A stretch of DNA of 64,000 nucleotides from a virus: positions 1-64,000 of IMG/VR virus record IMGVR_UViG_3300042448_001704. The stretch is one strand, 5' to 3'. The stretch's first letter is position 1; the number at the start of each line of letters is the position of its first letter. The translations under genes and the position numbers were made by a program. Positions 19,772 through 55,482 of this stretch are shown piece by piece. The notes beneath the pieces are model-generated. The model was given only the letters and a program-made list of their open reading frames with translations. It made no database searches and was not told the origin of the DNA.

Positions 19772-19812
19772 ACCTTCTCGGTTTATTTCTCCCCTTATTA
19801 AGGTAATTCATC

Positions 19813-35576: not shown

Positions 35577-35641
35577 CACATTTACTTACCCTGATACGCT
35601 ATTTCATAGTCTAAAATTAGCATCAGGTAACCGGAGGAACC

Positions 35642-36507: not shown

Positions 36508-36517
36508 GTGGCATTAA

Positions 36518-37822: not shown

Positions 37823-37828
37823 GAAAAT

Positions 37829-38017: not shown

Positions 38018-38060
38018 TGCCTTGCCCTGAGGGGCATTAACAAAGAAAGCGATTGAGGTC

Positions 38061-38510
38061 GTGGCACAGAAATTTACAGTTCCCGTAACTATACGCAACC
38101 TAACTTCTGCCAGCTCCGAAGCTTTCACAATATACGTTGACCAAGATGCTCATCCACGCCTACAAGTTCAGGCTGGTGGTCGTCTTGTTTGGGGTACTGG
38201 TGGGGTAACTGGAGATGTGAACCTTTACCGTTCTGATACAAACATACTGACAACAGATGATTTGTTTAAAGCAGCTTCCGGTCTTGTCACGCTTACTACT
38301 GCGGGCCCACCGACAGCATCTCTTCCTGACGGTGCTCTTGCTGTTGACTCGCTTAATGATGATTTTTACTTTCGCTCTGGTGGCGAATGGAAACTTACTA
38401 GTGGTGGATCAATATCGGGAGACATTGATGGCGGAAACACGCTTAATGATATTCTTGAGGCAGAAGTTTCAAATTATGCGATAATTACATTTGACGGAGA
38501 AGAACTATAA
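38061..38510 (+). CDS. Fibre-associated protein
   Basis: GTG start after GAGG; GRLVWGTGG...DVNLYRS...FYFRSGGEW...IDGG. Confidence 0.7.
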   Translation: MAQKFTVPVTIRNLTSASSEAFTIYVDQDAHPRLQVQAGGRLVWGTGGVTGDVNLYRSDTNILTTDDLFKAASGLVTLTTAGPPTASLPDGALAVDSLNDDFYFRSGGEWKLTSGGSISGDIDGGNTLNDILEAEVSNYAIITFDGEEL

Positions 38511-41500: not shown

Positions 41501-42310
41501 GATAACAATCCATCAGGCGAATTGGCTAATGGCGACTTCTGCTTCGTAACTGGTGGCTCAACTAATGGTGGATACGGATACATCAATAGTTCTTCTGCAA
41601 ATCCAATTGTTATTGGAACTGACGATGTTACGTACGCAGTATTTAACGCAGCTCAAATTGTAACTGGCGGTGCTGGTCTTGCTTTTACTGGAAATGTTCT
41701 TGATATCGGCACTGCATCAGTTAGCAGAATTGTTGTCAATGCTAACGACATCGATCTTGCTTCTGGTATTGCGACAATCGGAACCTATCAATCAGTAACT
41801 GTAGATACATATGGCCGAGTAACTGCTGGAACAAACCCAACAACGCTTTCTGGATACGGCATCACTGACGCAGCGCCAATCAATAACGCATCATTTACGG
41901 GAACATTCTCTGCTCCTTCTGGAACTATCACTAGCACGATGATTACGGATGGCACAATCGTCAATGGTGACATCAGTACTTCAGCCGCAATTGCTCTATC
42001 AAAACTTGCTTCAGGAACGTCTGCTCAAGTAATTGTTGCCAGCAGTGCTGGTGTCCCAACATATGTAACACTTTCTGGCGATGTCACCATCTCGGATACG
42101 GGTGTTGCCACAATTCAAGCCGACTCAGTAGCTTTAGGGACAGACACAACAGGTTCGTATGTAACATCCCTTGTTGCAGGAACTGGTATAACATTAACCA
42201 ACAACTCTGGAGAAAGCGCCACTCCGACAGTTGCTGTAACGGCAAACACTTATGACGCATATGGTTCCGCACGGAATCTTGAAATTAAATTCCTTATGGA
42301 GGTTATGTAA
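38510..42310 (+). CDS. Long repeat-built tail fibre with an Mtd_N-like N-terminus
   Basis: RIQLKRG...W...LLSGEIGYETDTDKFKIGNG...W..LPY, followed by multiple internal repeats; 1266 aa. Confidence 0.85.
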   Translation: MAGARIQLKRGLAAQWTASTTVLLSGEIGYETDTDKFKIGNGTSLWTSLPYFNGNLTGSNLNDLADVTITSAANGDFLRWNGTAWINDAVNLSTDTVGDYVGSLVAGTGVTLANNSGEGATPTVTVDTSVIQARVANVTDTEIGYLDGVTSAIQTQLDTKSPTNSPTFTGTVTLPDNTVALGTKTSGDYVASLVAGTGVTLTNNSGETATPTVAIGQAVATNSNVTFNDVIVSGNLTVSGYTTSINTEILTVDDNVIILNNNVTTAPTENAGIEIERGTSPNVRVLWNETTDKWETTNDGTTYGNIVTTADSGTVTSAMITDGTIVNGDINASAAIALSKLASGTSAQVVVADASGVPTYATLTGDVTISNTGVTTITANSVSLGTDTTGDYVQNLVAGTGVTLTNNTGESATPTVAIGQSIGTGDSPTFTGLTINGASVVFEGATANDFETTLAVTDPTADRTITFPDATTTVVGTDTTQTLSNKTLTTPVINGPTITATGQTPVIHGILLPATHNIIFEGTTDDDFETTLYVVEPTADRTVSLPDATTTLVGKDTTDTLTNKTLTSPKINEDVALTASATELNILDGATLSTTELNYVDGVTSAIQTQMDLKSPLASPTFTGTVTVPDNTIALGTKTTGDYVATITGGTGVSSTAATTGEGTTHTLSIGQAIATTDSPTFAGLTVNGASVVFEGVTANDFETTLTVTDPTADRTITIPDATGTVALTSDVTTHANLTEAHGATGAVVGTTNTQTLTNKTLTSPKINEDVALTSTATELNVLDGITSSTAELNILDGVTATAAELNILDGVTATAAEINTLDGITSSVSELNILDGVTSSAAELNILDGATLTTTELNYVDGVTSAIQTQIDAKAPTASPTFTGTVTLAADPASALQAATKQYVDNVVSGVNFHASVVAATSGNLAGTYSNGTSGVGATLTKATNGAIGTIDGATVVVGNRILLKSQTDAKENGIYIVTAVGSVSAPWVVTRATDADNNPSGELANGDFCFVTGGSTNGGYGYINSSSANPIVIGTDDVTYAVFNAAQIVTGGAGLAFTGNVLDIGTASVSRIVVNANDIDLASGIATIGTYQSVTVDTYGRVTAGTNPTTLSGYGITDAAPINNASFTGTFSAPSGTITSTMITDGTIVNGDISTSAAIALSKLASGTSAQVIVASSAGVPTYVTLSGDVTISDTGVATIQADSVALGTDTTGSYVTSLVAGTGITLTNNSGESATPTVAVTANTYDAYGSARNLEIKFLMEVM
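40840..41105 (+). repeat. Tandem 14-aa (42-bp) repeats ELN(I/V)LDGxTxxxx in the long fibre
   Basis: About six to seven consecutive copies (ELNVLDGIT, ELNILDGVT x2, EINTLDGIT, ELNILDGVT, ELNILDGAT, ELNYVDGVT). Confidence 0.85.
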
Positions 42311-42669
42311 TGGCATTGACACAAAAGCGACTTGCTGGTCCCGCGCAGTTAACGGCATCTTCTGCTGTTTACTACACGGTTCCAGTCAGCACAACGACAA
42401 TTGTTAAACAGATTATTTTGACAAACACAACAGCATCGGCCAAAACCGTAACCGTACGCCTGAAGCCATTGGGTGTTACTGAAGCAGCAACCCACGACAT
42501 CGTTAGCGCAATGTCCCTTGCAGCAAATGAAACCATGTCCTTTAACTGTTCATTAGTTTTAAACAACAACGGATCAACAGCAAGTGCTACGAATAGTGAT
42601 CAATTGACTGCTCTTTGCAGTTCTGCTACTTCTGTTAATATAACCGTGGTTGGTGTAGAAGAGGCATAA
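42310..42669 (+). CDS. Small beta-sandwich virion protein (fibre adaptor-like)
   Basis: YYTVPVSTTTIVKQIILTN...VNITVVGVE; coupled to the fibre gene. Confidence 0.7.
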   Translation: MALTQKRLAGPAQLTASSAVYYTVPVSTTTIVKQIILTNTTASAKTVTVRLKPLGVTEAATHDIVSAMSLAANETMSFNCSLVLNNNGSTASATNSDQLTALCSSATSVNITVVGVEEA

Positions 42670-43379
42670 TGGCTGGAATGGTTCGCTACCCTGCGGCTAA
42701 CGCAATGGCGTCATTTATTGATGCTCCAGATCCTGTTTATGGAACAGGGTCTGATGGTGATGCAACCCTTGATGGAACTACAACCGTTTTGAGCATGGCA
42801 CCGTCGTCTAGTGTTTATTCAATGACGCAAGATTTGTATTTTAATAACTTGATAATCAATGCTGGCGTTACATTAAAACCAAACGGTTACAGAATATTTG
42901 TAAAGAATTTATTAACTTTTGGTGGAAACAACTCAACAATTGGTTTCACGACTGGATACGCAACTAGCGGATCAATCTTTCAAGGCGGAGCCGCCGCCAC
43001 TGCTGTCACGCACAGTCTTGGTGGATCAGCAACTGGTTTTACGGCAACTGCACCAACCGCGGGTACTGGCGGTAGCGCATACTACACAATTCCACGACAA
43101 GCAGTTCAGGGATACTCTATAACAGCGTCAGGAGGCCCTACATGGCTTCGTGGGGGTGCTGGTGGCACTGCGCAGGCTGGTGGGGCTGTAATCATCCTTG
43201 CAGCTCGTTACATTGCGGCTCCACCTTCAGGGACTGGATACATTAAAGCTCCAGGTACAGCACCTGCGGGTGGTGGAGTTATTTTAATTGTTTCATCTGC
43301 AGCCACTTTACCTGCTGGCGTCTCTACAGATGTAACAGGTCAAAACGCTGGAACAGTGAATTACATGCAGTTGGTGTAA
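42669..43379 (+). CDS. Gly-rich virion protein, paralogue A
   Basis: YGTGSDGD...YFNNLII...GYRIFVK...GGAVIILAA...GGGVILIV. Confidence 0.75.
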   Translation: MAGMVRYPAANAMASFIDAPDPVYGTGSDGDATLDGTTTVLSMAPSSSVYSMTQDLYFNNLIINAGVTLKPNGYRIFVKNLLTFGGNNSTIGFTTGYATSGSIFQGGAAATAVTHSLGGSATGFTATAPTAGTGGSAYYTIPRQAVQGYSITASGGPTWLRGGAGGTAQAGGAVIILAARYIAAPPSGTGYIKAPGTAPAGGGVILIVSSAATLPAGVSTDVTGQNAGTVNYMQLV

Positions 43380-43380: not shown

Positions 43381-44802
43381 ATGGCGGGAATTCAAAAATC
43401 TGGTTCGTTAGTAAAAGTACAGCGCGCAGGAAATGATCAGCTTTATGGAAATGGCGCTGATGGTGATGTGACAATCTCTGGAACAGTCACATTAACTAGT
43501 GACAAGAATTATAATTCTTTAACCGTCCCATTGGGAACATTTCTATACACCGCCGGCTTCAGAGTATTCGTCAAAACGACAGCCGTCATTAACGGTGTTG
43601 TCGGTGTTGCAACAGTCACAGGAAACTCTGCTGGCGTATCCAACGGCACCATCACTAGTCCTGGATCTTTAATATCAACAGGAACAGCACCAGGCCACAC
43701 CAACTCTTCAATTACATACCGTTTAGGTGGTGAAGGCGGAGGAGCAACTGCTCCAGGGACTTCAGTTCTTCCTTCTTTTTTAATTAAAAAATTTGAGGCT
43801 TTAACTGGAACAATAATTGATGCCACATATGCGTCTACACCTATTGCGCTTGCTGGTGGTTCAAAAGGAACAACAGGGACAGTCGGAACAACCACCCCGA
43901 TTGTTACGGGAACATGGCCCGGGAAGTCCGGTACCGCAGGTTCAAACGGTGGACACCCAACAAATGGCACAACTGTTGGTGCAGCAGGCGGTAAAGGTGC
44001 TACAGGCGCTGATGGAACAACAACTGGTGCCACCACTGGCGCAGGTGGTGCAGGTGGCGCTGGCGCTGCAGGTGGCGCAGTGGTTATTTTGATTGCTAAA
44101 ACAATCACAGGAACCGGAACAGTTGCTTCTCTCGGGATGATTGGTACTGTTGGATCTGCTGGTGCTACAGGAAACCCTGGAACCGCAGGCGCAGCAGGCG
44201 CGGCCGCCCCTAACTACACGGTTACTCCGCATTCAGCTTCACCAACGCATCACCATACACCGAATGGACATGTGCATCCGCATGTGCATACACACCCACA
44301 TCATACTACTCACCCACATCATTTGGTGTACCCACATCATCACGTAAACCATACGCATACGGTGCATCCGCATCACCACTACAACACCGGTTATTCCGAC
44401 ATACATGACCATACCCCTGGTGGGCACCATCATGTGGGTCATCACCATACGACCTATAACCACCACCATACACCAGGTGGGCATCACCATACACCAGGTG
44501 GGCATCACCATACACCCAACGGACATGCGCATCCACATAGTCACGTACAAAGTCATTCACATCATGTTGCCAATCCAACTATTCATTATGCAGGTGGTGC
44601 AGGCGGTGCAGGCGGTGCAGCTTCTCCTGCGGTGACGGGTGGAACAGGAAAACGCGGTGGTGCAGGCGGTGGCGGATCAATAATTGTTCTTACTGAAACG
44701 ACACCATCTGGGCTAAACTATGATGTACGCTCAGGTACGACGGCAGATTCTGATACTTTTTCAGGTTCTTCTGGAACGACCTACATACTTTTAAACGCCT
44801 AA
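43381..44802 (+). CDS. Gly-rich virion protein, paralogue B, with a His-rich insert
   Basis: YGNGADGD...YNSLTV...GFRVFVK...GGAVVILIA...GGGSIIVL; about 48 His in 119 residues at 44230-44586. Confidence 0.8.
   Translation: MAGIQKSGSLVKVQRAGNDQLYGNGADGDVTISGTVTLTSDKNYNSLTVPLGTFLYTAGFRVFVKTTAVINGVVGVATVTGNSAGVSNGTITSPGSLISTGTAPGHTNSSITYRLGGEGGGATAPGTSVLPSFLIKKFEALTGTIIDATYASTPIALAGGSKGTTGTVGTTTPIVTGTWPGKSGTAGSNGGHPTNGTTVGAAGGKGATGADGTTTGATTGAGGAGGAGAAGGAVVILIAKTITGTGTVASLGMIGTVGSAGATGNPGTAGAAGAAAPNYTVTPHSASPTHHHTPNGHVHPHVHTHPHHTTHPHHLVYPHHHVNHTHTVHPHHHYNTGYSDIHDHTPGGHHHVGHHHTTYNHHHTPGGHHHTPGGHHHTPNGHAHPHSHVQSHSHHVANPTIHYAGGAGGAGGAASPAVTGGTGKRGGAGGGGSIIVLTETTPSGLNYDVRSGTTADSDTFSGSSGTTYILLNA
44461..44523 (+). 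repeat. 21-bp tandem repeat encoding HHHTP(G/N)G, three copies
   Basis: caccaccatacaccaggtggg catcaccatacaccaggtggg catcaccatacacccaacgga; related units near 44248 and 44404. Confidence 0.85.
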
Positions 44803-44815
44803 AATTGGAGACATC

Positions 44816-45043
44816 ATGGAATTTGAACTAACGGCAGAACAAAAAATAAGTGCTTTGAATAATGTCAAAATACAAGTTATCAATGAAATGTATTCAATGA
44901 TTTTGTTTCTTGGTCTTGATCCAGATACTTTTGATTCATCAACATGGGTGCACGACGACACCCCAACAGGTAATGAGGCACGACTGATTTCTCTTATTTC
45001 TACCGTTGCTATGGTTAATACAAAGATTGCTGCACTGTCATAA
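44816..45043 (+). CDS. Cassette small protein, copy 1 (unknown function)
   Basis: 75 aa; LTAEQKISAL...EMYSMILFLGLDPDTFD; similar to 54949..55188. Confidence 0.8.
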   Translation: MEFELTAEQKISALNNVKIQVINEMYSMILFLGLDPDTFDSSTWVHDDTPTGNEARLISLISTVAMVNTKIAALS

Positions 45044-45058
45044 TTTTAAAAGGTATAA

Positions 45059-46159
45059 ATGAGTGATATCTCAACAATAGACACTTCCCTGTATGAATAC
45101 TATTATTTAGTTGATACTCAAGAAGATTTTAAGCTATATACAAGAACGCCTAATGGTGATACAGAATTTACTGATTATAATGTATTTTCTATAGATGAAA
45201 AATCAATATTAGCGTTTAAGAAAAATATTAAAAGGCCTTTAATAAATTATAGTTATTTTTTAAAAACAGAAGATAATGAATATGTTATAAATTCATTAGA
45301 CTATGAACAATATATAACACTTATTTCACAAAATAATTTTTATTCTAAAAGTCTTTATACAATAATGAATTTTGTTCCTGCTGAAAATCATAGAGCAGTA
45401 GTTCATAATTTAATTTTGCCATATGATACTAGATGCGATACATCAACTTTTTCTTTTATTCCGTATCAAATTTATGATGGAGTAAAGACCACGACTAACG
45501 ATCCAACAAGGTTAAATGTTTCAACAATTGAAACACATACACCACTCATGACATCTACTGGTATAAGTGCAATTTCATTAACAGTAGTATCAAATATAGA
45601 AACTTCTTTTCGTGATTGGCCAACGGTTACACGTAGTGCAAAAACAATTATGGGTGTAATGAAACTTCTAATTGAATGGGCTTCACTGTTAGATGCCCCT
45701 TTCAATAGTTCTGATGAACTCCCGCAAGATGCAAAAAATTTTATTGATTCTTTAAAAATACCACAAGCAGTTCTTGATGAGATATCAATAACACAAGAAG
45801 ATATGCCTCTTTATAGGTATTTAAAAGGCATACCCAATTCGCGTCATGGATTCATAGAACAAGAAGAATTATCGCCTCTTTTTGCTGAATGGCTTTACAA
45901 GCAAATGATGTTTAGAACCCTTAACTCAATGGCTTTAAATCATCCCGATACTCCAAATTTTCCAGAAGAAGTGCTTAACTTGGAAAAAGCAAAAATAGAA
46001 GCAATTATTTATGGTGCCTGCGTCCTGTATGGACTAGATTATGAAACAGCAACACCTGACCAAATTATCAGTTCCCTTCCTCTTGAATCCGAAATATATC
46101 AAGTAGAAACTATTAAAACCGTCAAGGATGCAATAAACAATCGCAACGCATACCTGTAG
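45059..46159 (+). CDS. Cassette large protein, copy 1 (unknown function)
   Basis: 366 aa; EWASLLDAPFNS...LDEI...DMPLYRYLKG; similar to 54237..54947. Confidence 0.8.
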   Translation: MSDISTIDTSLYEYYYLVDTQEDFKLYTRTPNGDTEFTDYNVFSIDEKSILAFKKNIKRPLINYSYFLKTEDNEYVINSLDYEQYITLISQNNFYSKSLYTIMNFVPAENHRAVVHNLILPYDTRCDTSTFSFIPYQIYDGVKTTTNDPTRLNVSTIETHTPLMTSTGISAISLTVVSNIETSFRDWPTVTRSAKTIMGVMKLLIEWASLLDAPFNSSDELPQDAKNFIDSLKIPQAVLDEISITQEDMPLYRYLKGIPNSRHGFIEQEELSPLFAEWLYKQMMFRTLNSMALNHPDTPNFPEEVLNLEKAKIEAIIYGACVLYGLDYETATPDQIISSLPLESEIYQVETIKTVKDAINNRNAYL

Positions 46160-46164
46160 GAAAA

Positions 46165-47670
46165 ATGAATAACAAAATATCTTTTGCAATAGTTGGTTCT
46201 GGCACAGCAGGATTAGTAGCCGCATTAATGCTAAGAAAAGCTTTTAGAGATGCAGACATAACCGTTATCTCATCTTCTCAAATTGGGATAGTTGGTGTTG
46301 GTGAAGGATCAACAGAGCATTGGAAAATGTTTATGGAATCTTGCGATATTCCAGTAGAGGAACTAATTGTAAATAGTTCAGCGACCCATAAAAATGGAAT
46401 ACGATTTGAAAACTGGACTAATCATACTCCCGACTATTTCCATAGCATTGGTGGAATAGATGAAATTTTTGCCAACGGACTTTATGCATCCTATATGGGT
46501 ATGATTGAAAATAAACAATTAATTACTAATCAGACATCAAGTGTTGGATTGGTAACTAACAAAATTGGACGCAACAATATACACAAAACAGTAAATCAAT
46601 TTCACTTTGATACATATCAACTTAACGACTATTTAATGGGTATATGTTTTAATAGAATGATTAAATTTGTTGAAGGAAATGTAGATTCGGTTAATCTAGA
46701 TTCTGAAAATGGAACAGTCAAATCAGTCAATGTGAATAACGGAACCATGGTTGATGCTGATTTTTGGTTTGACGCAAGTGGTTTTTCCCGCGTAATCATG
46801 AATTCCCTAGAGAATACTGAATGGGAATCTTTTTCTCCTTACCTATTGGCGGATTCTGCAATCGCATTCCCAACAGAGTCTGACCCAAATGGCCAGATAC
46901 GACCATACACACGCGCCCGTGCGGCATCTTCTGGTTGGATGTGGGAAATACCAACACAAGAGCGGCGGGGAAACGGTTATGTATTTTCGTCTGCGCACAT
47001 ATCTGTAGATAAAGCAATAGAAGAAGCTGAGAAGATTAGTGGATACAAGGTTAAAGACAATCCACGAACATTCAAATATGATGCTGGTTATCTAAAAAAT
47101 CAGTGGGTTAAGAATTGTGTTGCCGTTGGTCTTGCAGGTGCTTTTGTTGAGCCGCTAGAAGCGACAAGTATTGGTAGCACGATAATTTTAATGAAGTCTT
47201 TAATGCAAAGCCTTTCTTCATATACTAAAGAGTCTGAAAAAATGCAGACTGCATACAACAAGATGACTAAAGAAACAATGAGAAACATACTAACGATGAT
47301 AAGACTTCATTATGTTTCCGATAGAAGAGATACTCAATTTTGGATAGATCAATCAAACATGCCAATCAATGATGAATTGCAAGAGCTGATTGATTTATGG
47401 TCAGAGCGTCCACCATCTCGGTATGATTCATACAATCAACAACATCTAATGTTTCAAACCCCTCATCTGGCTCATGTAATGCAAGGACAAGGACTAATAC
47501 CTCCTGAACCTTCCTCAATCGCCCTAGACAGACTCAACATAAGAGATATTGTACGTGCGGAAATTGATAAAATCAGAAATTCACGACACGCACATGAACT
47601 TATTGACCATAGAGTAGGGTTAATGGAAATCAAACTTATTGACGAGGAGTACAGCAATGGAATTCAATAA
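46165..47670 (+). CDS. Flavin-dependent tryptophan halogenase-family protein
   Basis: GSGTAG, VGVGEGST, ATHKNGIRFENW (catalytic Lys position), DASGF, WMWEIP, FVEPLEATSI. Confidence 0.92.
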   Translation: MNNKISFAIVGSGTAGLVAALMLRKAFRDADITVISSSQIGIVGVGEGSTEHWKMFMESCDIPVEELIVNSSATHKNGIRFENWTNHTPDYFHSIGGIDEIFANGLYASYMGMIENKQLITNQTSSVGLVTNKIGRNNIHKTVNQFHFDTYQLNDYLMGICFNRMIKFVEGNVDSVNLDSENGTVKSVNVNNGTMVDADFWFDASGFSRVIMNSLENTEWESFSPYLLADSAIAFPTESDPNGQIRPYTRARAASSGWMWEIPTQERRGNGYVFSSAHISVDKAIEEAEKISGYKVKDNPRTFKYDAGYLKNQWVKNCVAVGLAGAFVEPLEATSIGSTIILMKSLMQSLSSYTKESEKMQTAYNKMTKETMRNILTMIRLHYVSDRRDTQFWIDQSNMPINDELQELIDLWSERPPSRYDSYNQQHLMFQTPHLAHVMQGQGLIPPEPSSIALDRLNIRDIVRAEIDKIRNSRHAHELIDHRVGLMEIKLIDEEYSNGIQ

Positions 47671-48421
47671 AAAAGTGAAACCTGGTCAAGTAAGAATAAC
47701 ACCAGAAGACAATCGCTTAATGACAATGCCCCCATATCTTAATGGTCCAACAAGCATGCCTAAATGGTACAGAGCATTAAGCAAGTCTCGTGGAATGAAG
47801 AAGTGCGCAGCAATAAACGACTATTTGTCTCTGGGGATGACAATGCCTCTTTGGAGCAATATCTTTTTTAGACCGTCTCCAGAAGGTAATTTTTGGGAAT
47901 CACGAATTGAAAATATGCAACCCCCTCTTCGCAACCTTCAAATTGATGGTTTCAATTATGAACAACATGGGCAATGTCCAATAACTGGAGTGCGCAAAAT
48001 TGAAAATGCACAAATTCCTAAAATAGTAACTCCTTGGAGAATAGAAACAGCACCAGGTTGGTCTTGTTTGTTTCTTCCAGTTCTATGGGAACCAAGCAAC
48101 GACTATGATGTTCTTCCAAGCATTGTGCATACTGATTTTTATCACACTGTAAACATTGTTTTAAATATAAAAACAAATACCGATTTTGTGATTCCATATG
48201 GAACATCGATGTATCACATTATTCCATTTAAAAGAACAAGTAATTTCAAAGAAATTAAATTTGAAGATGAATCACGTTTTAAGTATGTTGATGTTACTGG
48301 ATTTGGATCTGGATTCTTAATGCCAAGCACTGGAACAGCCGGACCATATAGGCGCGCCAGACACAAAATTGATTTAGGGTTAGAAAACAAAAAATCCAAA
48401 TGGTGGAATTTTAATAAATAA
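47657..48421 (+). CDS. Conserved phage protein (DUF6065-like), typical neighbour of oxygenases
   Basis: PKWY...MKKCAAINDYLSLG...PWRIETAPGWSCLF...SIVHTD...IPYGT...IIPFKR; family name from recall only. Confidence 0.6.
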   Translation: MEFNKKVKPGQVRITPEDNRLMTMPPYLNGPTSMPKWYRALSKSRGMKKCAAINDYLSLGMTMPLWSNIFFRPSPEGNFWESRIENMQPPLRNLQIDGFNYEQHGQCPITGVRKIENAQIPKIVTPWRIETAPGWSCLFLPVLWEPSNDYDVLPSIVHTDFYHTVNIVLNIKTNTDFVIPYGTSMYHIIPFKRTSNFKEIKFEDESRFKYVDVTGFGSGFLMPSTGTAGPYRRARHKIDLGLENKKSKWWNFNK

Positions 48422-48467
48422 AACAAGGTATTGTCTTGTTTGCAATAAAGAAATATAGTTGTTTATT

Positions 48468-49049
48468 ATGAATGAAATTTTTCCATCAATCTGGGTCTAT
48501 AGCCAGATATTTCAAAATTCGCAGCTAGTAATTGATTCGCTAGAAAAAGCGATAGATGAAAATGTTTTACTTAATTGGGTTTATGCAAGTACTGGAAATC
48601 ATCAAACTGATGGAAGTGTGAAAAACCCTTACAGGAGCAATAAGACCATCTCTCTGCCAAACGATATTAATACTGCCGATGGTTCCGGAAATCTTGATTC
48701 ATTTATTTTTAATCAGGTAACAGAACTAACTAATGAATATTCGTCTCATTTTGGTTTAGGGGGAATGAAAGACGAAGGATATTCTGTTTTAAAATATGTT
48801 GATGGGGCGGAATATAAACAACATTTTGATTGTGGCGGGGATCACAAAGATCGAGTTGCTTCAATGGTTCTGTATTTGAATGATGATTACGAGGGTGGGG
48901 AACTTGAGTTTCCATTTTTTGGAATCAAATACAAGCCCTCTGTCGGTGATGTGATTTTTTTCCCTTCTTCCTATACTTTTGCCCATATTGCACATCCAGT
49001 TACGAGTGGAACAAAGTATGCTCTCGTAACATGGTTGGCCTATGAATAA
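48468..49049 (+). CDS. 2OG-Fe(II) oxygenase, prolyl-4-hydroxylase-like
   Basis: YKQHFD...SMVLYLNDDYEGGELEF...FFPS...AHIAHPVTSGTKY (HxD...H). Confidence 0.9.
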   Translation: MNEIFPSIWVYSQIFQNSQLVIDSLEKAIDENVLLNWVYASTGNHQTDGSVKNPYRSNKTISLPNDINTADGSGNLDSFIFNQVTELTNEYSSHFGLGGMKDEGYSVLKYVDGAEYKQHFDCGGDHKDRVASMVLYLNDDYEGGELEFPFFGIKYKPSVGDVIFFPSSYTFAHIAHPVTSGTKYALVTWLAYE

Positions 49050-49623
49050 TGTAGACACATTCCGCCAAAACAATTTTGTCTACCTTGGGAATATTATTTC
49101 ACAAGATCTTGTTTCTGCCATTTCTGGATACGCCCTCCTTCAGGAAACATACGCTTTTACTCCTGACACTGAACAGGTAATAAATGCCCACGCTGTGTAT
49201 TCAGACTTTTTAATGGAGTCACTATTGGTTCAGTACAAACCGATAGTTGAAGAAGCAACTGGTTTGTCCCTTCTGCCAACTTATTCTTTTTATAGGGTTT
49301 ACAGAAGAGGTCAAGAACTGGTTCCACATATTGATAGACCGGCTTGCGAAATATCAATGAGTGTCTGTTATGACTTTGACTATATGGGTAAAGATTACGA
49401 CTGGCCACTATATATGGAAGACGATCCGCTGGTTATGAAACCGGGCGATGCGGCTATTTACCGCGGTATGGACTTAAACCACTATCGGCCAATATTTAAT
49501 GTTCCTCAAAACTCATACCATATTCAGGCTTTTTATCATTATGTTGATGCAAACGGTCAATATGCCGAATATGCATATGATAAAAACAAAAACTCTCATC
49601 TGAAAGTAATAGAAACAAAATAA
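49042..49623 (+). CDS. 2OG-Fe(II) oxygenase-like protein
   Basis: LLPTYSFYRVY...LVPHIDRPACEIS...PGDAAIYRG...HYR...QAFYHYV. Confidence 0.82.
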   Translation: MNNVDTFRQNNFVYLGNIISQDLVSAISGYALLQETYAFTPDTEQVINAHAVYSDFLMESLLVQYKPIVEEATGLSLLPTYSFYRVYRRGQELVPHIDRPACEISMSVCYDFDYMGKDYDWPLYMEDDPLVMKPGDAAIYRGMDLNHYRPIFNVPQNSYHIQAFYHYVDANGQYAEYAYDKNKNSHLKVIETK

Positions 49624-49624
49624 T

Positions 49625-49915
49625 ATGTTTTTTAAGAAAATTATTTCCGCCATTAAGACCATGAGTTCCAAAGATTACTGGACACGGGTTAACACCGTTG
49701 AAGCGTGGGGTTTTTCTACCAAGATTGCCATTATTTTTCCTGGTCTACTGTTGGGGAAGCAATTTTGGTGGCTCTACATCTTTGCTATCGTTTCCAGCGT
49801 GGCTCTTATTTGGACTTCCACGAAGAAAACTCTTCCAACAATTATTTTGTTTAATGTCTTGTGGGTGATACTCGCAAGTTTGTCAATTATTAAACACTTT
49901 TGGTGGTTTGGCTAA
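49625..49915 (+). CDS. Small multi-TM membrane protein
   Basis: 96 aa, three hydrophobic segments. Confidence 0.7.
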   Translation: MFFKKIISAIKTMSSKDYWTRVNTVEAWGFSTKIAIIFPGLLLGKQFWWLYIFAIVSSVALIWTSTKKTLPTIILFNVLWVILASLSIIKHFWWFG

Positions 49916-49945
49916 ATAATACCTTTCCATCAAAAGCCTTATAAA

Positions 49946-49954
49946 TGCTAAAAT
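49946..49954 (+). promoter_or_regulatory. Extended -10 element TGcTAAAAT, leaderless-type
   Basis: Ends 5 nt before the ATG at 49960; no clear RBS. Confidence 0.55.
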
Positions 49955-49959
49955 AGGCC

Positions 49960-50367
49960 ATGGAACGATTCTGGTATGGGGCAACCCTTAATAAAGTAAT
50001 TGATGGGGACACCATCGAGTTAATGGTTGATCTTGGCTTTAATGTTCATCACAAAATCCGCGTTCGCCTATACGGTGTGAATACCCCAGAATCACGTACT
50101 AAAGATTTGGCCGAGAAGGCTATGGGGCTGAAAGCTAAACAATTTACTCAAGAATGGTTGACAAACCATAAGTGGGTATTTGTTAACACCATCCCAGACA
50201 AGAACGATAAATACGGCCGAGTCTTGGCTCGCATATTTTCTTCCGATGATATTAACAACCCGACTACTGCCTGCCTAAACATAGACATAATAGAATCTGG
50301 ACTAGCCAGAGAATACTATGGCGTTGGCGACAAAACTTGGGATGAATATAAAAAGGAAACAAAGTGA
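49960..50367 (+). CDS. Thermonuclease (SNase-like)
   Basis: VIDGDT, RVRLYGVNTPE, DKYGRVLA, GLA. Confidence 0.9.
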   Translation: MERFWYGATLNKVIDGDTIELMVDLGFNVHHKIRVRLYGVNTPESRTKDLAEKAMGLKAKQFTQEWLTNHKWVFVNTIPDKNDKYGRVLARIFSSDDINNPTTACLNIDIIESGLAREYYGVGDKTWDEYKKETK

Positions 50368-50732
50368 TGTCAGAAGAAAAATCAATATTCAGTATGATGA
50401 TGGCAGGTATGCCAGTAAGAATCATGGACAGAACCGAAGCTTTCCAGCACCCTCTTGCTCCCGAAGAAAAAGAGCTGGCGGACGCCCTTGTTGGGATTGC
50501 CGAAAGATATGGCAAGTTCAATGAAGACAAAAAAGGAATCTGGGCAGGCTACGACGATGCTTCTAGTAATACTGTTGCAAGAATTGGTGTTAAGTGCGCA
50601 AACTGTGTTTTGTATATGGGTGATGGTCAATGCCGTATAATCCTTCAAACTGTTGAGCCTGAAGGAAAATGTAGATTTGCTGTTATTCCTGATGGTGTCG
50701 TGCAAGCGACAATGAATAACCAGATTATTTAA
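50367..50732 (+). CDS. Four-Cys (HiPIP-like spacing) small protein
   Basis: KCANCVLY...CRII...VEPEGKCRF. Confidence 0.65.
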   Translation: MSEEKSIFSMMMAGMPVRIMDRTEAFQHPLAPEEKELADALVGIAERYGKFNEDKKGIWAGYDDASSNTVARIGVKCANCVLYMGDGQCRIILQTVEPEGKCRFAVIPDGVVQATMNNQII

Positions 50733-50744
50733 TAAGGAAATAAA

Positions 50745-51515
50745 ATGACATTTTTTAATGAACTATTGGGGGAAATTAAAGGTTTTAGGTTTGAGCAAGA
50801 CCTCAAAGCTCTTGGCAAACCAATAAGACCTAGAGGTCCTGATATTCCGTTAGACGGTGATGGTGATGGTTTCGTTGTAGATCCAATTACTGGAGACGAC
50901 AATATTCCTTTTGTTCCCGATGTTGTTCCAAGGTCAATATCAATTAGAAAAAACCACAAGCCGGCACCAGCGATGGTTGATAAGTGGCAAAAAGACTTAG
51001 AAGACATGACACCTGTCTGGCGCGAAGATCCAATGAAAGCAGCTGATGGGTCATATTACGACTGGGAATGGGCTGATGAAACTGTCTACAAACTTAGTCA
51101 AAATCCAGATGGTTCTACACTTTCCAAATATGACTTAGAGGGTATAAAGGCTCACTACAAAAAAGAAATTGATGACCATAATCGCCGTGATCCAGAGAAT
51201 AAGAGCAAATCTGAATTGGCTGAATCGCAAGCAGCGCTTGATGAGGTTCAAAAAATGATTGACGATAAGCCTCAAACCGACAAACGAACTCCTGATCAAA
51301 AGTTAGATGCACTATTTTTTCAAACAAGAAAAGATAAAACTGGCCCTCCTGGAAAACAAGTCAGAACAAGAGAAAATGACCGTCAAATACAACAAGATGC
51401 TGACAATATAAAATTTCTTCAAGAGCAATTAAAGCGCTTTGAGAAAGACCCAGAAAAGACAAAGCTAATCAACGAATCAATATCTCACCTTCAAGAATTC
51501 AAGAAGAAGAAATAA
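50745..51515 (+). CDS. Hypothetical protein with GxIxGFRFE N-terminal tag and DGDGDG motif
   Basis: MTFFNELLGEIKGFRFEQDLKA...PLDGDGDGFV. Confidence 0.75.
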   Translation: MTFFNELLGEIKGFRFEQDLKALGKPIRPRGPDIPLDGDGDGFVVDPITGDDNIPFVPDVVPRSISIRKNHKPAPAMVDKWQKDLEDMTPVWREDPMKAADGSYYDWEWADETVYKLSQNPDGSTLSKYDLEGIKAHYKKEIDDHNRRDPENKSKSELAESQAALDEVQKMIDDKPQTDKRTPDQKLDALFFQTRKDKTGPPGKQVRTRENDRQIQQDADNIKFLQEQLKRFEKDPEKTKLINESISHLQEFKKKK

Positions 51516-51961
51516 TGACAACCTGGGAAGACTATACGGGATCAATTGTGGGGTTCAGATTTGAATCAAAAGCAGATAAAGAAAATTGTCCTCGCGCAAC
51601 TCAAGACATTGGTGTAAATATTAAGAATCGCCAAAAAGCGATAGAGACTGCCGACTACGGCCCTTTAAACCCCAAAGAAGCAAACGATGCTTTCTGGAAG
51701 AAAAAAGGTGATCGTTGGGACGTTTCTCCAGAAGAAGCGAAGAAGCAAAAGTGTGGCAACTGTATTCTCTTTGTTCGTTCTCCACGAATTCTTAAATGTA
51801 TTGAGGGTGCTCTCGGTAATGAGTCAGGTTCTACTTGGGACATCGTTGATGCTGGTCAAATAGGATACTGCGAAGCCTTTGACTTTAAGTGCCACTCAGA
51901 GCGCACTTGTGATGCTTGGGTTGTTGGAGGCCCAACTGTTACAGACGGTAAAGAAAAGTAA
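51515..51961 (+). CDS. Cys-cluster protein with GSIxGFRFE N-terminal tag
   Basis: MTTWEDYTGSIVGFRFESKA; CGNC...GYCEAFDFKCHSERTCDAW. Confidence 0.75.
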   Translation: MTTWEDYTGSIVGFRFESKADKENCPRATQDIGVNIKNRQKAIETADYGPLNPKEANDAFWKKKGDRWDVSPEEAKKQKCGNCILFVRSPRILKCIEGALGNESGSTWDIVDAGQIGYCEAFDFKCHSERTCDAWVVGGPTVTDGKEK

Positions 51962-51968
51962 CTACATC

Positions 51969-52580
51969 ATGCTTTGGAAAGATTATAAAGGAAGCATCAA
52001 GTCTATAAGATTTGAAAATAGCGAAGATTCTTTTGCTCATAATGAAAAATCATTAAAAGAGTGGTTTAAGGAAAAATGGGTTGACTTATCTAGACCCAAA
52101 AAAGATGGTGGATTTGAGCCTTGCGGTAGGGACGACGCAGACAAGGGCAAATACCCTAAATGTGTTCCGGCTTCCAAAGCAAGCAAAATGACTGCTGAAG
52201 AAATCCGTTCTGCCGTATCTAGAAAAAGAAGAGCAGAATCAACTCAAGTCCGAGACGGTAATAAACCTATCAATGTCTCAACAGATAAAAAAGATGGTTC
52301 TGATATTGAAGAAAAATCAGCCATACCTACAGACGCTGTTTTGTATGCGCGGGTAAAAGCGGAAGCAAAAGCCAAATTTGATGTTTACCCTTCCGCTTAT
52401 GCCAATGCTTGGCTGGTTAGGGAGTACAAGAAAAGGGGTGGCGGTTATCGTTCTGAAAAGGCAGATAATGGCGAATATGAAGAGTTGCTTCAAGACCTCA
52501 CGGAAATTCAATTGTCTGATTTCTTTGATTGGGTTGACGAAAACGATAAGACTGCTAGGCTTCAAGTTCCTAACCCATAG
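51969..52580 (+). CDS. DUF5872-like protein with GSIKSIRFE N-terminal tag
   Basis: ATG at 51969; SLKEWFKEKWVD...PCGR...YPKCVP and LYARVKAEAK...YPSAYANAWLVREYKKRGGGY; family name from recall. Confidence 0.7.
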   Translation: MLWKDYKGSIKSIRFENSEDSFAHNEKSLKEWFKEKWVDLSRPKKDGGFEPCGRDDADKGKYPKCVPASKASKMTAEEIRSAVSRKRRAESTQVRDGNKPINVSTDKKDGSDIEEKSAIPTDAVLYARVKAEAKAKFDVYPSAYANAWLVREYKKRGGGYRSEKADNGEYEELLQDLTEIQLSDFFDWVDENDKTARLQVPNP

Positions 52581-52597
52581 TTTCGTTGAGGTATAAT

Positions 52598-52762
52598 ATG
52601 TCAGAACAACTTAATCCACAGTCAATTATTGATGAACTTATTAAAAGAGTAAATGCATTAACTCTTGAAAATGTCGTGCTCGCTGCGCAACTTCAAGATC
52701 ACCGCAACCATCATGCTTCCAGCCAAGCAATTGATAAGGATGATGTATTTTCGGAGGATTAA
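52598..52762 (+). CDS. 54-aa coiled-coil protein, below the track cutoff
   Basis: GAGG then ATG at 52598; MSEQLNPQSIIDELIKRVNALTLENVVLAAQLQ...; ends 3 nt before 52766. Confidence 0.65.
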   Translation: MSEQLNPQSIIDELIKRVNALTLENVVLAAQLQDHRNHHASSQAIDKDDVFSED

Positions 52763-52765
52763 CAT

Positions 52766-54223
52766 ATGGCGGCTAAAACAGTACACGCCTATACGGGCGC
52801 AGCTTATGTGGCCGCTATTCCTCGCAAGGCCTCAGCCTCGGCAATTAAAAGGATTTTTTCCAGCGTTACAACCAACATCTGGGAAGGATATCCAAATGCT
52901 GTAACGTCCGTATCGGGTTCAAACACGGCCACCGGAACTTTCCCAAATAAAACAAGCAATGTAACAGTCTCGTGGAGCAATCCAGCGGACACTAGCTTGA
53001 CTGCATCCTACGATATTTTCTTTGATGTCGGTAGTTCTGGAGCTTTTACAAAGCACAACTCAACAGCCATATCAAAGTCTTCTACTTCATACACATTTGG
53101 CGCTATTCCTGCTGCAACAAACTATAGATGGTTTATTAGAACGATTGGAACATCTGGTTTAACTACAGACTCTGCAACTTCTAGCGTTTTCTCTTTAAGT
53201 GCACCGGCTTCACGGTCATTAACAGCAAACACTGCTGTTTTAACGAATGGCATATCGTGGACTGCAACTGCTGGCGTGTATCAAAGATTTTATGTTTACT
53301 ACTCTTCAAACAACAGCACATGGACTGGACCTATAGAAGTTGCTTCTAGTATTAGTCAAACTTCATACGCGTATCAGATAACGACCGTTGAAAACACAAA
53401 TAGATATTGGCGCATGTCTGGTCAAAACACAAATGCACACTGGAGTCCAGAATCAATAGCAACGGTCTACACCCCTGTAAATTGCACTAACTATGGTACG
53501 GCAGGTGCAGACCATGGTTGGACTGCTGGAACACCAGTAGCCAACACGCCCACAGGAACATGTGGAAACAGGGTTTATACAAATACAACCACTTGGACTA
53601 AAACATTAGCAGGCACTATATGTTCTTCTTACACAACAACAAGTGGAGAAATAGCAGCGCCTAGTTGTGTTGATAGTTGCTACGATACTGGAACTGCGAC
53701 AACTGAGACTATTGGTTGTCAATGTAGTGGTAGTTTTACGAGAACGACAACCCCCTACACAGCAAAATCGGGAAGTAACTGTGGGGCAAAAGCCAGTACC
53801 GTTTCAGATTCGGCGTGTGCTGGCAACTGCACAAACAGCGATGCTGATTGTTATACCGCCACTGTGACCGCTTGTGAATCTGGCATAAAAGATGGTGTTT
53901 CTGCAGCATGCGGAGCAGGAATAACATCATATGTTCCAGTTGAAACTGCTGTGCCAAAATGCGGAGACACGGCCAATACTGGATCGTGCGGAAACTTTAA
54001 TACTGAAGCTCCGCTTCCTGCTGGATGGATAAACGCTTCATCTCTATATGCAGGAACATTTCAAACACCTGGTTATGGTATTGACGGTTGTGGTTGCGAT
54101 GCCTTCCACGCGTACCGTAGATATCAATGCAGTACTGATGCTGCCATTATTAAAACAGTAGATTATGGTTGCATGCAGTGGACTCTTTCATGCGGTGGCG
54201 GCGGTAGCGGCGGAACTATTTAA
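52766..54223 (+). CDS. FN3-like plus Cys-rich putative virion/fibre protein
   Basis: Two FN3-like units (VTVSWSNP...YDIF...YRWFIR; ISWTA...RYWRM), then 20 Cys in the last ~245 aa. Confidence 0.75.
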   Translation: MAAKTVHAYTGAAYVAAIPRKASASAIKRIFSSVTTNIWEGYPNAVTSVSGSNTATGTFPNKTSNVTVSWSNPADTSLTASYDIFFDVGSSGAFTKHNSTAISKSSTSYTFGAIPAATNYRWFIRTIGTSGLTTDSATSSVFSLSAPASRSLTANTAVLTNGISWTATAGVYQRFYVYYSSNNSTWTGPIEVASSISQTSYAYQITTVENTNRYWRMSGQNTNAHWSPESIATVYTPVNCTNYGTAGADHGWTAGTPVANTPTGTCGNRVYTNTTTWTKTLAGTICSSYTTTSGEIAAPSCVDSCYDTGTATTETIGCQCSGSFTRTTTPYTAKSGSNCGAKASTVSDSACAGNCTNSDADCYTATVTACESGIKDGVSAACGAGITSYVPVETAVPKCGDTANTGSCGNFNTEAPLPAGWINASSLYAGTFQTPGYGIDGCGCDAFHAYRRYQCSTDAAIIKTVDYGCMQWTLSCGGGGSGGTI

Positions 54224-54236
54224 CGTGTGGAAATAA

Positions 54237-54947
54237 TTATATTTCTATTTCTCTCAACATTTGAGTAGTTTCCTTAGGGGCAAACTCTTGTTGTTTTTCT
54301 TTAAACCAAGCCATCATTTTCGGAGACATTTGAGGGTAAGTCTCTGAAAGTTGCCTATGATTCACATCGCCTTTCAGATATCTTGCTAAATGCATATCTG
54401 GCAGTGAATCTATTTCATGAAGCAAACCTAAAGGAACTTCCAAGATATCTAGCGCAAGTTTTGAATATATTGCCATTGGGTGATCCGAATTAAAAGGTTC
54501 TTCTACCATGAATGACCATTCACGCATATTTTTTAAAAGTTCAATTATTGATGTTCCAAACCATATTGTGCAAGGGGCACCGCTGGTGTCAAACAAATCG
54601 TCTGTGGCAAATGTATTTCCATCTATTGTGTTTTGATAGAACGCCACATATGTAATCACAAAATGAGGGGCAGCATCAATTACTTTTACTCCAGATTGTA
54701 TATCTAGTATTCCAAGAGGCATTCCTGTATAAGGAGATGTTTCTCCCATATACATACCTTCATCATGGTATGGAGTGTGAACTGTCGGTAATTCCATGCT
54801 GTAAGTCAAAGAATCACATCTGCCAGAATACGGAGTATTAACACCATCAACTACGAGCAAACTTTTATGAAGTATGAAACGACCACGGTTGGCTGGTGAT
54901 GCATCTCTGAAAGTTACCCAATCGGGGAGAGATTGGCTGTGTTCCAT
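54237..54947 (-). CDS. Cassette large protein, copy 2
   Basis: 236 aa; EWSFMVEEPFNS...LHEI...DMHLARYLKG. Confidence 0.8.
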   Translation of the reverse strand: MEHSQSLPDWVTFRDASPANRGRFILHKSLLVVDGVNTPYSGRCDSLTYSMELPTVHTPYHDEGMYMGETSPYTGMPLGILDIQSGVKVIDAAPHFVITYVAFYQNTIDGNTFATDDLFDTSGAPCTIWFGTSIIELLKNMREWSFMVEEPFNSDHPMAIYSKLALDILEVPLGLLHEIDSLPDMHLARYLKGDVNHRQLSETYPQMSPKMMAWFKEKQQEFAPKETTQMLREIEI

Positions 54948-54948
54948 T

Positions 54949-55188
54949 TTATGATCCTAGTTTTGTGTCAATTATTTTAAGGCCTTCGCACAGTCTGCTT
55001 ATGGTCTGGTTATATGTCCACAACGAGTTAGAAGTTTCCAGAGTATTAGTAAAGGTTGTGTAGTCAAGGTCGTCTGGGTCAATTCCTCCCCTTATACACC
55101 ATGTGTATAATTCGGCAAACATGCGAGAACGCAAGGCTTCCAAAGCTGCGGTTTTATCATCCGTATTTAAAAATTGTTCTAATCCCAT
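54949..55188 (-). CDS. Cassette small protein, copy 2
   Basis: 79 aa; LNTDDKTAAL...ELYTWCIRGGIDPDDLD. Confidence 0.8.
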   Translation of the reverse strand: MGLEQFLNTDDKTAALEALRSRMFAELYTWCIRGGIDPDDLDYTTFTNTLETSNSLWTYNQTISRLCEGLKIIDTKLGS

Positions 55189-55236
55189 TTTTTGGTTCTT
55201 TCCGTCCGTGCGCTTACCTCACACTAGTATAGAACC

Positions 55237-55482
55237 ATGGTATCTCATTGGGATGAATGGAAAAAGAAGAATGCTAAACGTCAGGAAACTGGCGTCGTAC
55301 GACCGTGGGATGTAATAAACCCCGAAACGCAGTATCTGGAGCCAGAGGACGCTAAGGCGCGACTAGATATCTGTAACAGCTGTGAGTTCCTTAATGCCCT
55401 GCATCAGTGCCAGAAATGTGGCTGCTTGATGCCTGTGAAGGTAACCCTAAAACACGCAACTTGCCCAATAGGAAAATGGTAG
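55237..55482 (+). CDS. Small Cys-rich metal-binding protein (DUF6171-like)
   Basis: RLDICNSC...CQKCGCLM..K...CPIGKW. Confidence 0.8.
   Translation: MVSHWDEWKKKNAKRQETGVVRPWDVINPETQYLEPEDAKARLDICNSCEFLNALHQCQKCGCLMPVKVTLKHATCPIGKW

Follow-up and report, generated by a model that had tools for sequence, protein, structure and literature searches.

Receptor-binding tips and their dedicated helpers decide the host range of phages, and such tips are hard to make recombinantly without the right helpers. A 64,000-nucleotide stretch of DNA from an uncultured lake phage (here called the window) raises the question of what is done by a pair of genes, one small and one large, that occurs twice among its fibre genes. 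The terminase is closest to Gordonia/FelixO1-type phages (44 %), and the phage is not T4-like. An initial annotation had described the pair as a duplicated two-gene cassette and as a dedicated maturation module for metal-ligand-rich tips. Both gene pairs are present as open reading frames: copy 1 on the plus strand, with SMALL-a (44816-45043, 75 aa) and the long form of LARGE (45059-46159, 366 aa), and copy 2 on the minus strand, with SMALL-b (55188-54949, 79 aa) and the short form of LARGE (54947-54237, 236 aa, core domain only).

Pairwise BLASTP aligned the small proteins with 28 % identity across 46 aa (E 2e-7) and the large ones with 24 % identity across 217 aa (E 2e-12), including the motifs RCD, EW..PFNS and DM.L.RYLKG. 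The copies are old, diverged paralogues with distinct conserved contexts and not the result of a recent cassette duplication, so that this part of the annotation had to be given up: SMALL-a goes with a His-rich gene and SMALL-b with LARGE. In the tree, the copy-1 gene falls into a SMALL-a clade of 29 rows (support 100/98), all small proteins encoded 3' of a His-rich gene, and the copy-2 gene into a stand-alone SMALL-b clade (support 96/87). The gap between SMALL-a and the His-rich gene is ≤15 nt in 29 of 29 loci. The SMALL-to-LARGE gap is likewise ≤15 nt in all 37 pairs, with a median of -4 (a 4-nt overlap), and amounts to 1 nt in copy 2; elsewhere among the relatives the two genes are sometimes apart. 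Translation of the two genes would thus be coupled, and the proteins probably form a complex. SMALL-b lies directly upstream of LARGE in 33 of 36 short forms vs 0 of 13 long forms, and the C-terminal tail of the long form resembles SMALL (hhalign 77 %, E 2e-5). The C-terminal domain of long LARGE is therefore probably a fused SMALL-b partner; the partnership, with this probable fusion, can be tested directly.

Neither gene had been assigned to a family from the sequence, and searches of Pfam, PHROG and NCBIfam bore this out. For SMALL (P0001, P0003), a PDB profile search added weak matches to designed helical repeats only. LARGE comprises 246 clusters at 50 % identity and was found in viruses only and not in cellular genomes; close relatives of the short form account for 94 clusters. 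It had no relative in the PDB either (best Z 3.3), and structure prediction combined with database searches yielded no known unrelated enzyme family. The AF2 model of the short form (pLDDT 87, pTM 0.86) reached a top PDB Z of 3.3 with zero Foldseek matches; that of the long form (pLDDT 79, pTM 0.81) matched Ig-like and helical-bundle structures only (Z 3.5-6). In the long model, a putative Ig-like N-domain (residues ~10-85; matched by VIA-align with many Ig/fn3 domains along ~65-70 residues, Z 3.5-4.3; no Pfam match) precedes the family core (~95-290) and the SMALL-like helical C-domain (~303-366), and the pTM suggests that these domains pack together. The core is predicted to be alpha/beta, with no detectable structural relative. 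Its invariant polar residues are R-C-D, E-W and E, and the His residues conserved in the short forms are not conserved in the long ones. The C-terminal half of the short form is very strongly conserved, the N-terminal domains vary within the family (P0220, for example, carries a phrog_7759 domain), and the Gly content is 3-5 %. These searches define two uncharacterised, virus-only protein families that are tied genetically to unusual His-/Cys-rich tips of abundant lake phages.

SMALL proteins range from 75 to 93 aa and are conserved at both ends (L5, K10, E24, D35-P36, L60, K70) around a variable middle. They may be helical adaptors with an invariant D-P turn, their helicity being read solely from the homologous C-domain in the long LARGE model. 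A RiPP precursor was considered and rejected: conserved, helical ends with a variable middle are unlike a leader-core architecture, and LARGE has no RRE/PqqD or other Pfam match. An acyl or peptidyl carrier protein was rejected as well, with no PP-binding match and the invariant D-P where the Ser of G-x-D-S-L would stand.

As annotated, copy 1 lies directly 3' of a His-rich protein and 5' of a halogenase. The former is a His/Gly-rich putative distal fibre or tip protein of 473 aa (43381-44802, plus strand) with 10.6 % His, 19 % Gly and 21 overlapping HxH, its His-rich segment spanning residues ~290-395; it had no PDB or Pfam match. A Gly-rich protein of 236 aa (42669-43379, plus) is a paralogue of its N-terminal scaffold without the His insert (BLASTP, 33-34 % over ~120 aa) and in related loci, too, immediately precedes the His-rich gene, 58-71 % conserved. 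Downstream of LARGE, all on the plus strand, follow the flavin-dependent, Trp-type halogenase (46165-47670; PF04820 1.8e-105, phrog_2928), 34-38 % identical to Kyanoviridae halogenases, and P260 (47639-48421; phrog_7084 1.8e-23, a PHROG without function label; no Pfam or NCBIfam match), which adjoins the halogenase in all modules. Of the two 2OG-Fe(II) oxygenases proposed initially, Pfam supports one, of the P4H-type family (48459-49049; PF13640 4.6e-16, phrog_61). The other candidate frame, P193 (49042-49623), has no Pfam match and hits only phrog_2954 (3.5e-44) and phrog_3531, both labelled ferrochelatase in PHROGs, a putative assignment, and 47639-48421 is P260.

Across ~60 related viral contigs, the genes usually come in the order Gly-rich protein, His-rich protein, SMALL-a, a protein of ~135 aa, 2OG oxygenase, halogenase, P260, SMALL-b, LARGE and a small membrane protein, and His-rich homologues with 6-15 % His stand upstream of nearly every halogenase-type module. 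The enzyme block encloses SMALL-b and LARGE, immediately 3' of halogenase-P260, in ~25 loci, a P450 gene directly follows LARGE in ~11 loci, and the enzyme block duplicates jointly with the His-rich gene and SMALL-a. Together with the invariant polar residues of LARGE, this arrangement speaks for a part of the pair in oxidative tailoring, in which it would recruit the substrate as a scaffold, or act as a catalytic subunit, and so present the His-/Cys-rich tip, or else a small peptide, to be halogenated, hydroxylated or cross-linked. A substrate for viral halogenases is indeed still sought: the active site of VirX1 is large and open, and the natural substrate of these enzymes has not been established (PMC8407142). 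Such a role nevertheless appears unlikely, given stand-alone pairs without any halogenase, 2OG oxygenase, P260 or P450, halogenase-bearing cultured phages without LARGE, a second enzyme module without LARGE in a contig (L017) with two His-rich/enzyme modules, the conserved His residues that the long forms do not share, and a SMALL that is conserved over its full length. Since stand-alone pairs do without the halogenase, the tie of the pair is to the tip and not to the enzymes. Separating the tip-linked set (SMALL, LARGE, DUF6171) from the oxidative block allows sharper experiments on the viral halogenase substrate.

Copy 2 represents the stand-alone context and forms an opposite-strand island relative to the structural genes, 13 nt from the convergent gene. 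In agreement with the annotation, it sits between a protein with 20 Cys and a small Cys-rich one. The first is a Cys-rich tip protein of 485 aa (52766-54223, plus) with a weakly fn3-like N-terminal part, all Cys beyond residue 240 and a tail ending in GCGC..C..GC..SCGGGG. The second, divergent from SMALL-b, is a DUF6171 protein (55237-55482, plus; PF19668 1.4e-6, phrog_13558 7.9e-17), whose gene adjoins the pair in every stand-alone context and also in three further loci (L034, L036 and L041). Blastn collinearity with a 95 %-identical phage (L003) breaks at 53685 and restarts at 55242; the relative has ~746 nt there, with a different tail and no pair. The Cys-rich C-terminal ~180 aa and both genes of copy 2 are thus exchanged as one block between these phages. 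A Cys-rich C-terminal tail adjoins the pair in 8 of 8 stand-alone loci, and no pair accompanies Cys-rich alleles whose tails differ.

Scoring the neighbourhoods of homologues in viral contigs gave a consistent and not random linkage to His-rich or Cys-rich tip genes, kept in either orientation and in three gene orders, so that the claim of genes travelling with metal-ligand-rich tips was upheld. This linkage, the joint exchange with the tip tail and the constant ≤15 nt between SMALL-a and the His-rich gene also make it improbable that the pair has nothing to do with fibres (serving e.g. in anti-defence, superinfection exclusion or regulation) and owes its place to a structural region prone to recombination. 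Accessory genes are known to accumulate in the fibre regions of phages, and such a function would fit the opposite-strand island of copy 2, so close to its convergent neighbour, and the failure to find a functional annotation anywhere in Pfam, PHROG or NCBIfam.

Because the pair is inherited and swapped with His-rich and Cys-rich tips, it most likely helps to build or complete them. We tentatively favour, at somewhat less than an even chance, a complex of coupled SMALL and LARGE as an assembly partner specific to the tip, by the logic of T4 gp57A/gp38. SMALL and LARGE would form a virus-specific two-protein unit serving the distal tail-fibre tip protein, with the SMALL-b partner fused as a C-terminal domain in long LARGE and the second paralogue, SMALL-a, linked to the His-rich tip gene. 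As a chaperone-type factor, the unit would bind the tip and fold, oligomerise or complete its His- or Cys-packed domains, which probably bind metal.

In T4, the HxH needle of gp37 holds seven Fe ions by way of His, and gp37 depends on the small, helical gp57A as well as on gp38, which is specific to this tip (PMC6957217). As in T4, a small, probably helical protein of ~75-80 aa and a larger, tip-specific one are encoded beside an HxH-rich distal fibre protein, and tip and partner are exchanged together between relatives. Unlike T4, the phage has a His content far above that of gp37, two SMALL paralogues and interleaved oxidative enzymes. Pfam, PHROG, PDB and fold searches revealed no sequence or fold similarity of SMALL or LARGE to gp57A, gp38, Tfa or any chaperone. 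Tfa-type accessory genes that are swapped with the tip C-terminus as a module are a general precedent. Tfa/Caudo_TAP chaperones (Mu, P2, lambda-type) and the V22-type RBP chaperone likewise lie beside the receptor-binding tip, whereas the system here has two components, which in one of its contexts run towards the tip gene instead of following it; Pfam (E ≤1) and PHROGs (E ≤0.01) gave no Caudo_TAP/Tfa match.

In the comparison with the 95 %-identical phage, LARGE of copy 1 is among the few mosaic, divergent genes, with fibre and Cys-rich genes, while nearly all remaining genes are 94-100 % identical. Its patch 45209-45658 is only 59-67 % identical, and synonymous divergence is likewise high, which argues for recombination and leaves positive selection unproven. 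The His-rich protein, its presumed client, is 95-97 % conserved where LARGE is divergent, a better fit to a host-contacting protein than to a chaperone. Being mosaic and hypervariable as the fibres are, LARGE may determine specificity no less readily than it may be a housekeeping enzyme of maturation. The proposed dedicated maturation module stands as to travelling with tips, and falls as to a single cassette; the His-rich/enzyme module also duplicates without a second LARGE.

LARGE could instead be part of the virion, an adhesin or adaptor seated on the His-rich or Cys-rich tip domain and in contact with the host like T2/S16-type gp38, with SMALL as connector or private chaperone, which is possible, if on the unlikely side. 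Ig-like domains are typical of virion-exposed proteins, and the putative one in the long forms speaks for this alternative and against an assembly partner. So placed among fibre genes, mosaic together with them, variable in its N-terminal domains and exchanged along with the Cys-rich tail in a block of host-range type, LARGE resembles such adhesins, which lie beside the distal fibre and vary between close relatives; it too is encoded with the distal tip. However, the short forms have no obvious exposed or variable domain, their strongly conserved C-terminal half is unlike receptor-binding surfaces, copy 2 is encoded opposite to the structural genes, and the divergent patch reflects recombination. 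Nor is LARGE itself Gly-rich, as the adhesin type is with its PGII motifs; it has no family match, and its fold searches peaked at Z 3.3 with no gp38 structure among those listed, which by itself proves nothing. Two further observations on LARGE sit uneasily with the favoured assembly partner: its invariant R-C-D and E-W motifs might just as well belong to an active site, and one genome has two His-rich/enzyme modules for one LARGE.

In cyanophage S-SRM01, a halogenase separates the tail fibre from a Gly-rich protein annotated as 'gp37-gp38 adhesin tip complex' and containing a Cys/Trp-rich insert, a layout like the Gly-rich scaffold with His-rich insert of the window; this protein has no BLAST similarity to the His-rich or Gly-rich proteins of the window, and S-SRM01 has no LARGE. 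The likeness to VirX1 and the cyanophage flavin-dependent halogenases belongs to the neighbouring halogenase and not to SMALL or LARGE, neither of which occurs in the cultured phages that have the halogenase. In composition (~19-29 % Gly, 6-15 % His), the putative clients resemble the Nereis jaw proteins Nvjp-1 and Nai11527, Gly/His-rich, Zn-binding, halogenated and cross-linked, which also co-occur with halogenating and oxidising chemistry (PMC13120676). Those are animal extracellular material without homology, and the likeness is an analogy of composition and neighbouring chemistry. It is a long shot that SMALL and LARGE hold the His-/Cys-rich tips as a recognition and delivery component for metal loading and for the enzymes nearby (halogenase, 2OG oxygenase and P450) to halogenate, hydroxylate or cross-link. 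If so, the tip that binds the receptor would be hardened chemically and bear metal, as the phage counterpart of halogenated His/Gly-rich biomaterials, and the class of natural substrates that has long been sought for viral halogenases would be identified. The module in the window is closed by P96 (49625-49915, plus), a small hydrophobic, membrane-type protein by the hydrophobic segments in its translation, which is 75-95 % identical across loci where other genes are 35-60 % identical.

All four open reading frames named in the initial annotation are present as described: SMALL-a (75 aa) and a long LARGE (LARGE1, 366 aa) in copy 1 (44816-45043 and 45059-46159, plus strand), SMALL-b (SMALL2, 79 aa) and a short LARGE (LARGE2, 236 aa) in copy 2 (55188-54949 and 54947-54237, minus strand). 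The proposed homology of the two copies was borne out, with 28% identity over 46 residues for the small (E 2e-7) and 24% over 217 residues for the large proteins (E 2e-12). Neither gene had been assigned to a recognised family, and searches of Pfam, PHROGs and NCBIfam likewise gave no match for any of the four proteins.

Copy 1 follows the gene of the His-rich protein (43381-44802, plus strand; 473 aa, 10.6% His, 19% Gly, 21 HxH motifs), a putative fibre-tip protein. Its neighbours include a halogenase of the Trp-halogenase family (PF04820, 1.8e-105). One of the two announced 2OG-Fe(II) oxygenases was confirmed by Pfam, and the other neighbours are a phrog_7084 protein (P260) and a phrog_2954 protein (P193). 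The module is closed by P96 (49625-49915, plus strand), a hydrophobic protein of 96 aa with no family match. P96 is 75-95% identical across phages whose adjacent genes reach only 35-60%, which is unusual for a small membrane-type protein. Copy 2 is accompanied by a DUF6171 protein and by the second putative fibre-tip protein (52766-54223, plus strand; 485 aa), which contains 20 Cys, every one of them past residue 240. Between the stop codons of LARGE2 and the Cys-rich gene convergent with it lie only 13 nt (54224-54236), too few for a terminator; the two transcripts must therefore overlap or read through.

Near-length relatives of the long (26) and the short LARGE (94) are all metagenomic and unnamed. 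When 1.84 billion representatives were searched exhaustively with a profile, 246 clusters emerged, 192 with E<=1e-10; they fall into two length classes of about 215-255 and 340-395 aa. Ten distant members had no match in Pfam or PHROGs except for a differing N-terminal domain in the 361 aa metagenome protein P0220, in which the LARGE core is fused to a phrog_7759 domain. The N-terminal module of LARGE is thus exchangeable. In cultured cyanophages and pelagiphages the phrog_7759 domain stands by itself, and P0220 matches cultured phages through this unrelated domain only. No LARGE relative was found in a contig scan of cellular genomes from 185,579 species, nor did region megablast and tblastn searches with the proteins P0002 and P0004 and the distant member P0272 match any of 50,697 phage records. 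Four cultured phages that bear a halogenase likewise yielded no LARGE in a profile search, an outcome that by itself proves little.

The AlphaFold model of the long LARGE (pLDDT 79, pTM 0.81) consists of an Ig-like sandwich (residues ~10-85), a core (~95-290) and a three-helix C-terminal domain (~303-366), while that of the short LARGE (pLDDT 87, pTM 0.86) comprises the core alone, a beta-sheet followed by helices. Compared with 48,161 PDB representatives, the core model gave only seven matches at Z>=2 (best Z 3.3), and Foldseek retrieved no PDB entry at E<=0.001 for either LARGE model. A VIA-wide search with the long model returned Ig-like and small helical-bundle resemblances only, matches in BFVD were confined to uncharacterised proteins of uncultured phages, and neither PDB profile searches nor the ESM Atlas produced a credible or usable match. 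Relative to the libraries searched, both families and the core fold are novel. Residues invariant in long and short forms are R-C(-D/E), E-W, P(-F-N), E, M and W; the two His conserved in the short LARGE are not retained in the long forms.

ORF calling in 66 fetched viral loci gave 49 non-identical LARGE genes, which occur in three gene contexts. The canonical context A (~25 loci) reads Gly-rich protein of ~240 aa, His-rich protein, SMALL, a ~135 aa protein, 2OG oxygenase, halogenase, P260, SMALL, short LARGE and P96. In context B, a long LARGE stands either straight after the His-rich gene and SMALL and before the halogenase, as in the window, or after P260. Context C, represented by copy 2 of the window and by L010 and L021-L028, is a stand-alone arrangement of a divergently oriented DUF6171 gene followed by SMALL and a short LARGE, convergent on the last gene of a fibre operon. 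In about 11 loci a cytochrome P450 (PF00067, 1.3e-25) lies immediately past LARGE on either strand (L057:8648-9895, L054:8725-9957, L040:2558-3937 and about eight further loci); the window has none.

Sixty-five distinct proteins were recovered with the SMALL HMM, 24 encoded right after the His-rich gene, 32 right before a short LARGE, five in both of these positions, the arrangement of the window, and four in neither. In the maximum-likelihood tree, the copy-1 SMALL belongs to a 29-row clade of after-His proteins (support 100/98) and the copy-2 SMALL to an eight-row clade of the stand-alone type (96/87). The two "cassettes" of the window are therefore old paralogues with different roles: the idea of a two-gene cassette present twice holds insofar as both pairs are real and homologous, but the tree and the gene contexts resolve it into two SMALL roles and one LARGE. 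Readings of SMALL as an ACP-like protein or a RiPP precursor were rejected by membership tests.

SMALL-b lies immediately upstream of 33 of 36 short LARGE genes and of none of the 13 long ones. Aligned by hhalign, the C-terminal domain of the long LARGE matched SMALL with a probability of 33% when the alignments were small and of 77% (E 2e-5) with 65 versus 93 sequences, and SMALL-b (64%) was the better match, ahead of SMALL-a (39%). Hence, the long LARGE is probably a fusion with a SMALL-like C-terminal domain. Junctions from SMALL to LARGE measure <=15 nt in all 37 pairs, with a median overlap of 4 nt, as do all 29 junctions from the His-rich gene to SMALL-a. From the linkage of SMALL-b split by LARGE form, the likeness of the C-terminal domain and the tight junctions together, we infer a physical SMALL-LARGE complex.

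A protein rich in both His (6-15%, with 5-21 HxH) and Gly precedes nearly all A and B modules on contigs that reach far enough, and all eight proteins facing stand-alone pairs carry 10-20 Cys in their C-terminal part only; most of these proteins terminate in a recurring tail of the type GC.C..C..GC..SCGGGG. No PDB sequence match was obtained for the His-rich and Gly-rich proteins. The closest relative of the window, L003, is collinear with it (~94-95% nucleotide identity) as far as 53685, a point within the Cys-rich gene, and collinearity resumes at 55242. Between these breakpoints, L003 has ~746 nt versus 1,557 nt in the window; neither this segment nor the rest of the 33 kb L003 contig encodes a SMALL or a LARGE, and the tail of the L003 Cys-rich protein differs. 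The Cys-rich proteins of L004 and L014 also have other tails and lack the pair. Tip tail and pair therefore move as a single block. The Cys-rich genes of L004 (7834-9477) and L014 (16430-18070), whose ~472 aa products differ in their C-terminal tail, each precede a same-strand 67 aa ORF at the site that the convergent LARGE/SMALL pair occupies elsewhere; this ORF may be a different small partner.

Block exchange of a tip tail with dedicated partners is a kind of system already known. In T4, the needle of gp37 binds seven Fe ions via His and depends on both the small protein gp57A and the tip-specific protein gp38 (PMC6957217). The closest logic for a tip-specific partner pair is found in gp57A/gp38, an analogy of function and not of family, as membership fails at the sequence level. 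The best-supported reading, which we put forward tentatively, is that the pair forms an accessory complex dedicated to the tip and acts as a chaperone or assembly partner. The maturation module travelling with the tips that the initial annotation proposed is partly supported: the linkage is real, the biochemical role putative.

Along an 11.8 kb collinear stretch, all genes of the window and L003 are 94-100% identical except the Cys-rich gene (79.9%) and LARGE1 (80.5%, with a patch of 59-67% over codons ~50-200); the fibre gene upstream is mosaic too. Synonymous differences are numerous in the LARGE1 patch as well, so that the patch reflects recombination, with positive selection not demonstrated. 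This mosaic patch and the Ig-like domain of the long LARGE speak for the main rival, in which LARGE is a virion-borne adhesin or adaptor; we regard it as rather doubtful.

Pair and halogenase are separable: context C has the pair and lacks the enzyme, and cultured phages carry the halogenase but no pair. L017 carries a second full block (13220-20744: Gly-rich, His-rich of 709 aa, SMALL, 151 aa protein, 2OG oxygenase, halogenase, P260) and yet a single LARGE; the 273 aa gene closing this block, where LARGE would be expected, is unrelated. The association of the enzymes is thus closer with the His-rich gene and SMALL-a than with LARGE. A candidate role of the pair as scaffold or subunit of an oxidative tailoring pathway is made attractive by VirX1, whose natural substrate is unknown and whose active site is open (PMC8407142), and by the halogenated, Zn-binding Gly/His-rich jaw proteins of Nereis (PMC13120676), and appears unlikely. 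Least likely, and improbable in our view, is a hitch-hiking accessory function.

In the cultured freshwater Synechococcus phage S-SRM01 (L071, 4965-9573), the layout parallels that of the window: the halogenase has a tail fibre and a fibre-like protein of 667 aa on one side and, on the other, a Gly-rich 'gp37-gp38 adhesin tip complex' protein into which a Cys/Trp-rich segment is inserted. There is no homology, however, the adhesin having no BLAST similarity to the His-rich or Gly-rich proteins of the window.

The window belongs to an IMG/VR viral contig of 88.8 kb (~60% complete) from a contractile-tailed phage, whose tail sheath is encoded at 22173-23651 and whose fibre-type proteins lie at 33673-42310. 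Its large terminase (13419-14723, plus strand) is closest, at 44%, to those of Gordonia and FelixO1-type myophages; the phage is therefore not T4-like, and an assignment to T4-like phages or Kyanoviridae was dropped. In contrast, the halogenase is nearest to Kyanoviridae enzymes, and cyanophage-like accessory genes reside in a non-T4-like lineage. The T4 late-promoter motif TATAAATA was not enriched, and a sigma-70 promoter scan gave no excess over shuffles. Metatranscriptome run X20 contained related-strain contigs over parts of the fibre, His-rich and halogenase genes and none over 53772-55099; such contigs cannot show transcription, and the gap carries no weight. Near-identical DNA was present in some 19 metagenome runs from lake water. 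The fibre gene at 38510-42310 (plus strand; 1266 aa) is internally repetitive and, compared with L003, mosaic, with many off-diagonal blastn matches to L003 (70-78%) between 38.8 and 41.2 kb and, in metagenome contigs, joints that skip or repeat units.
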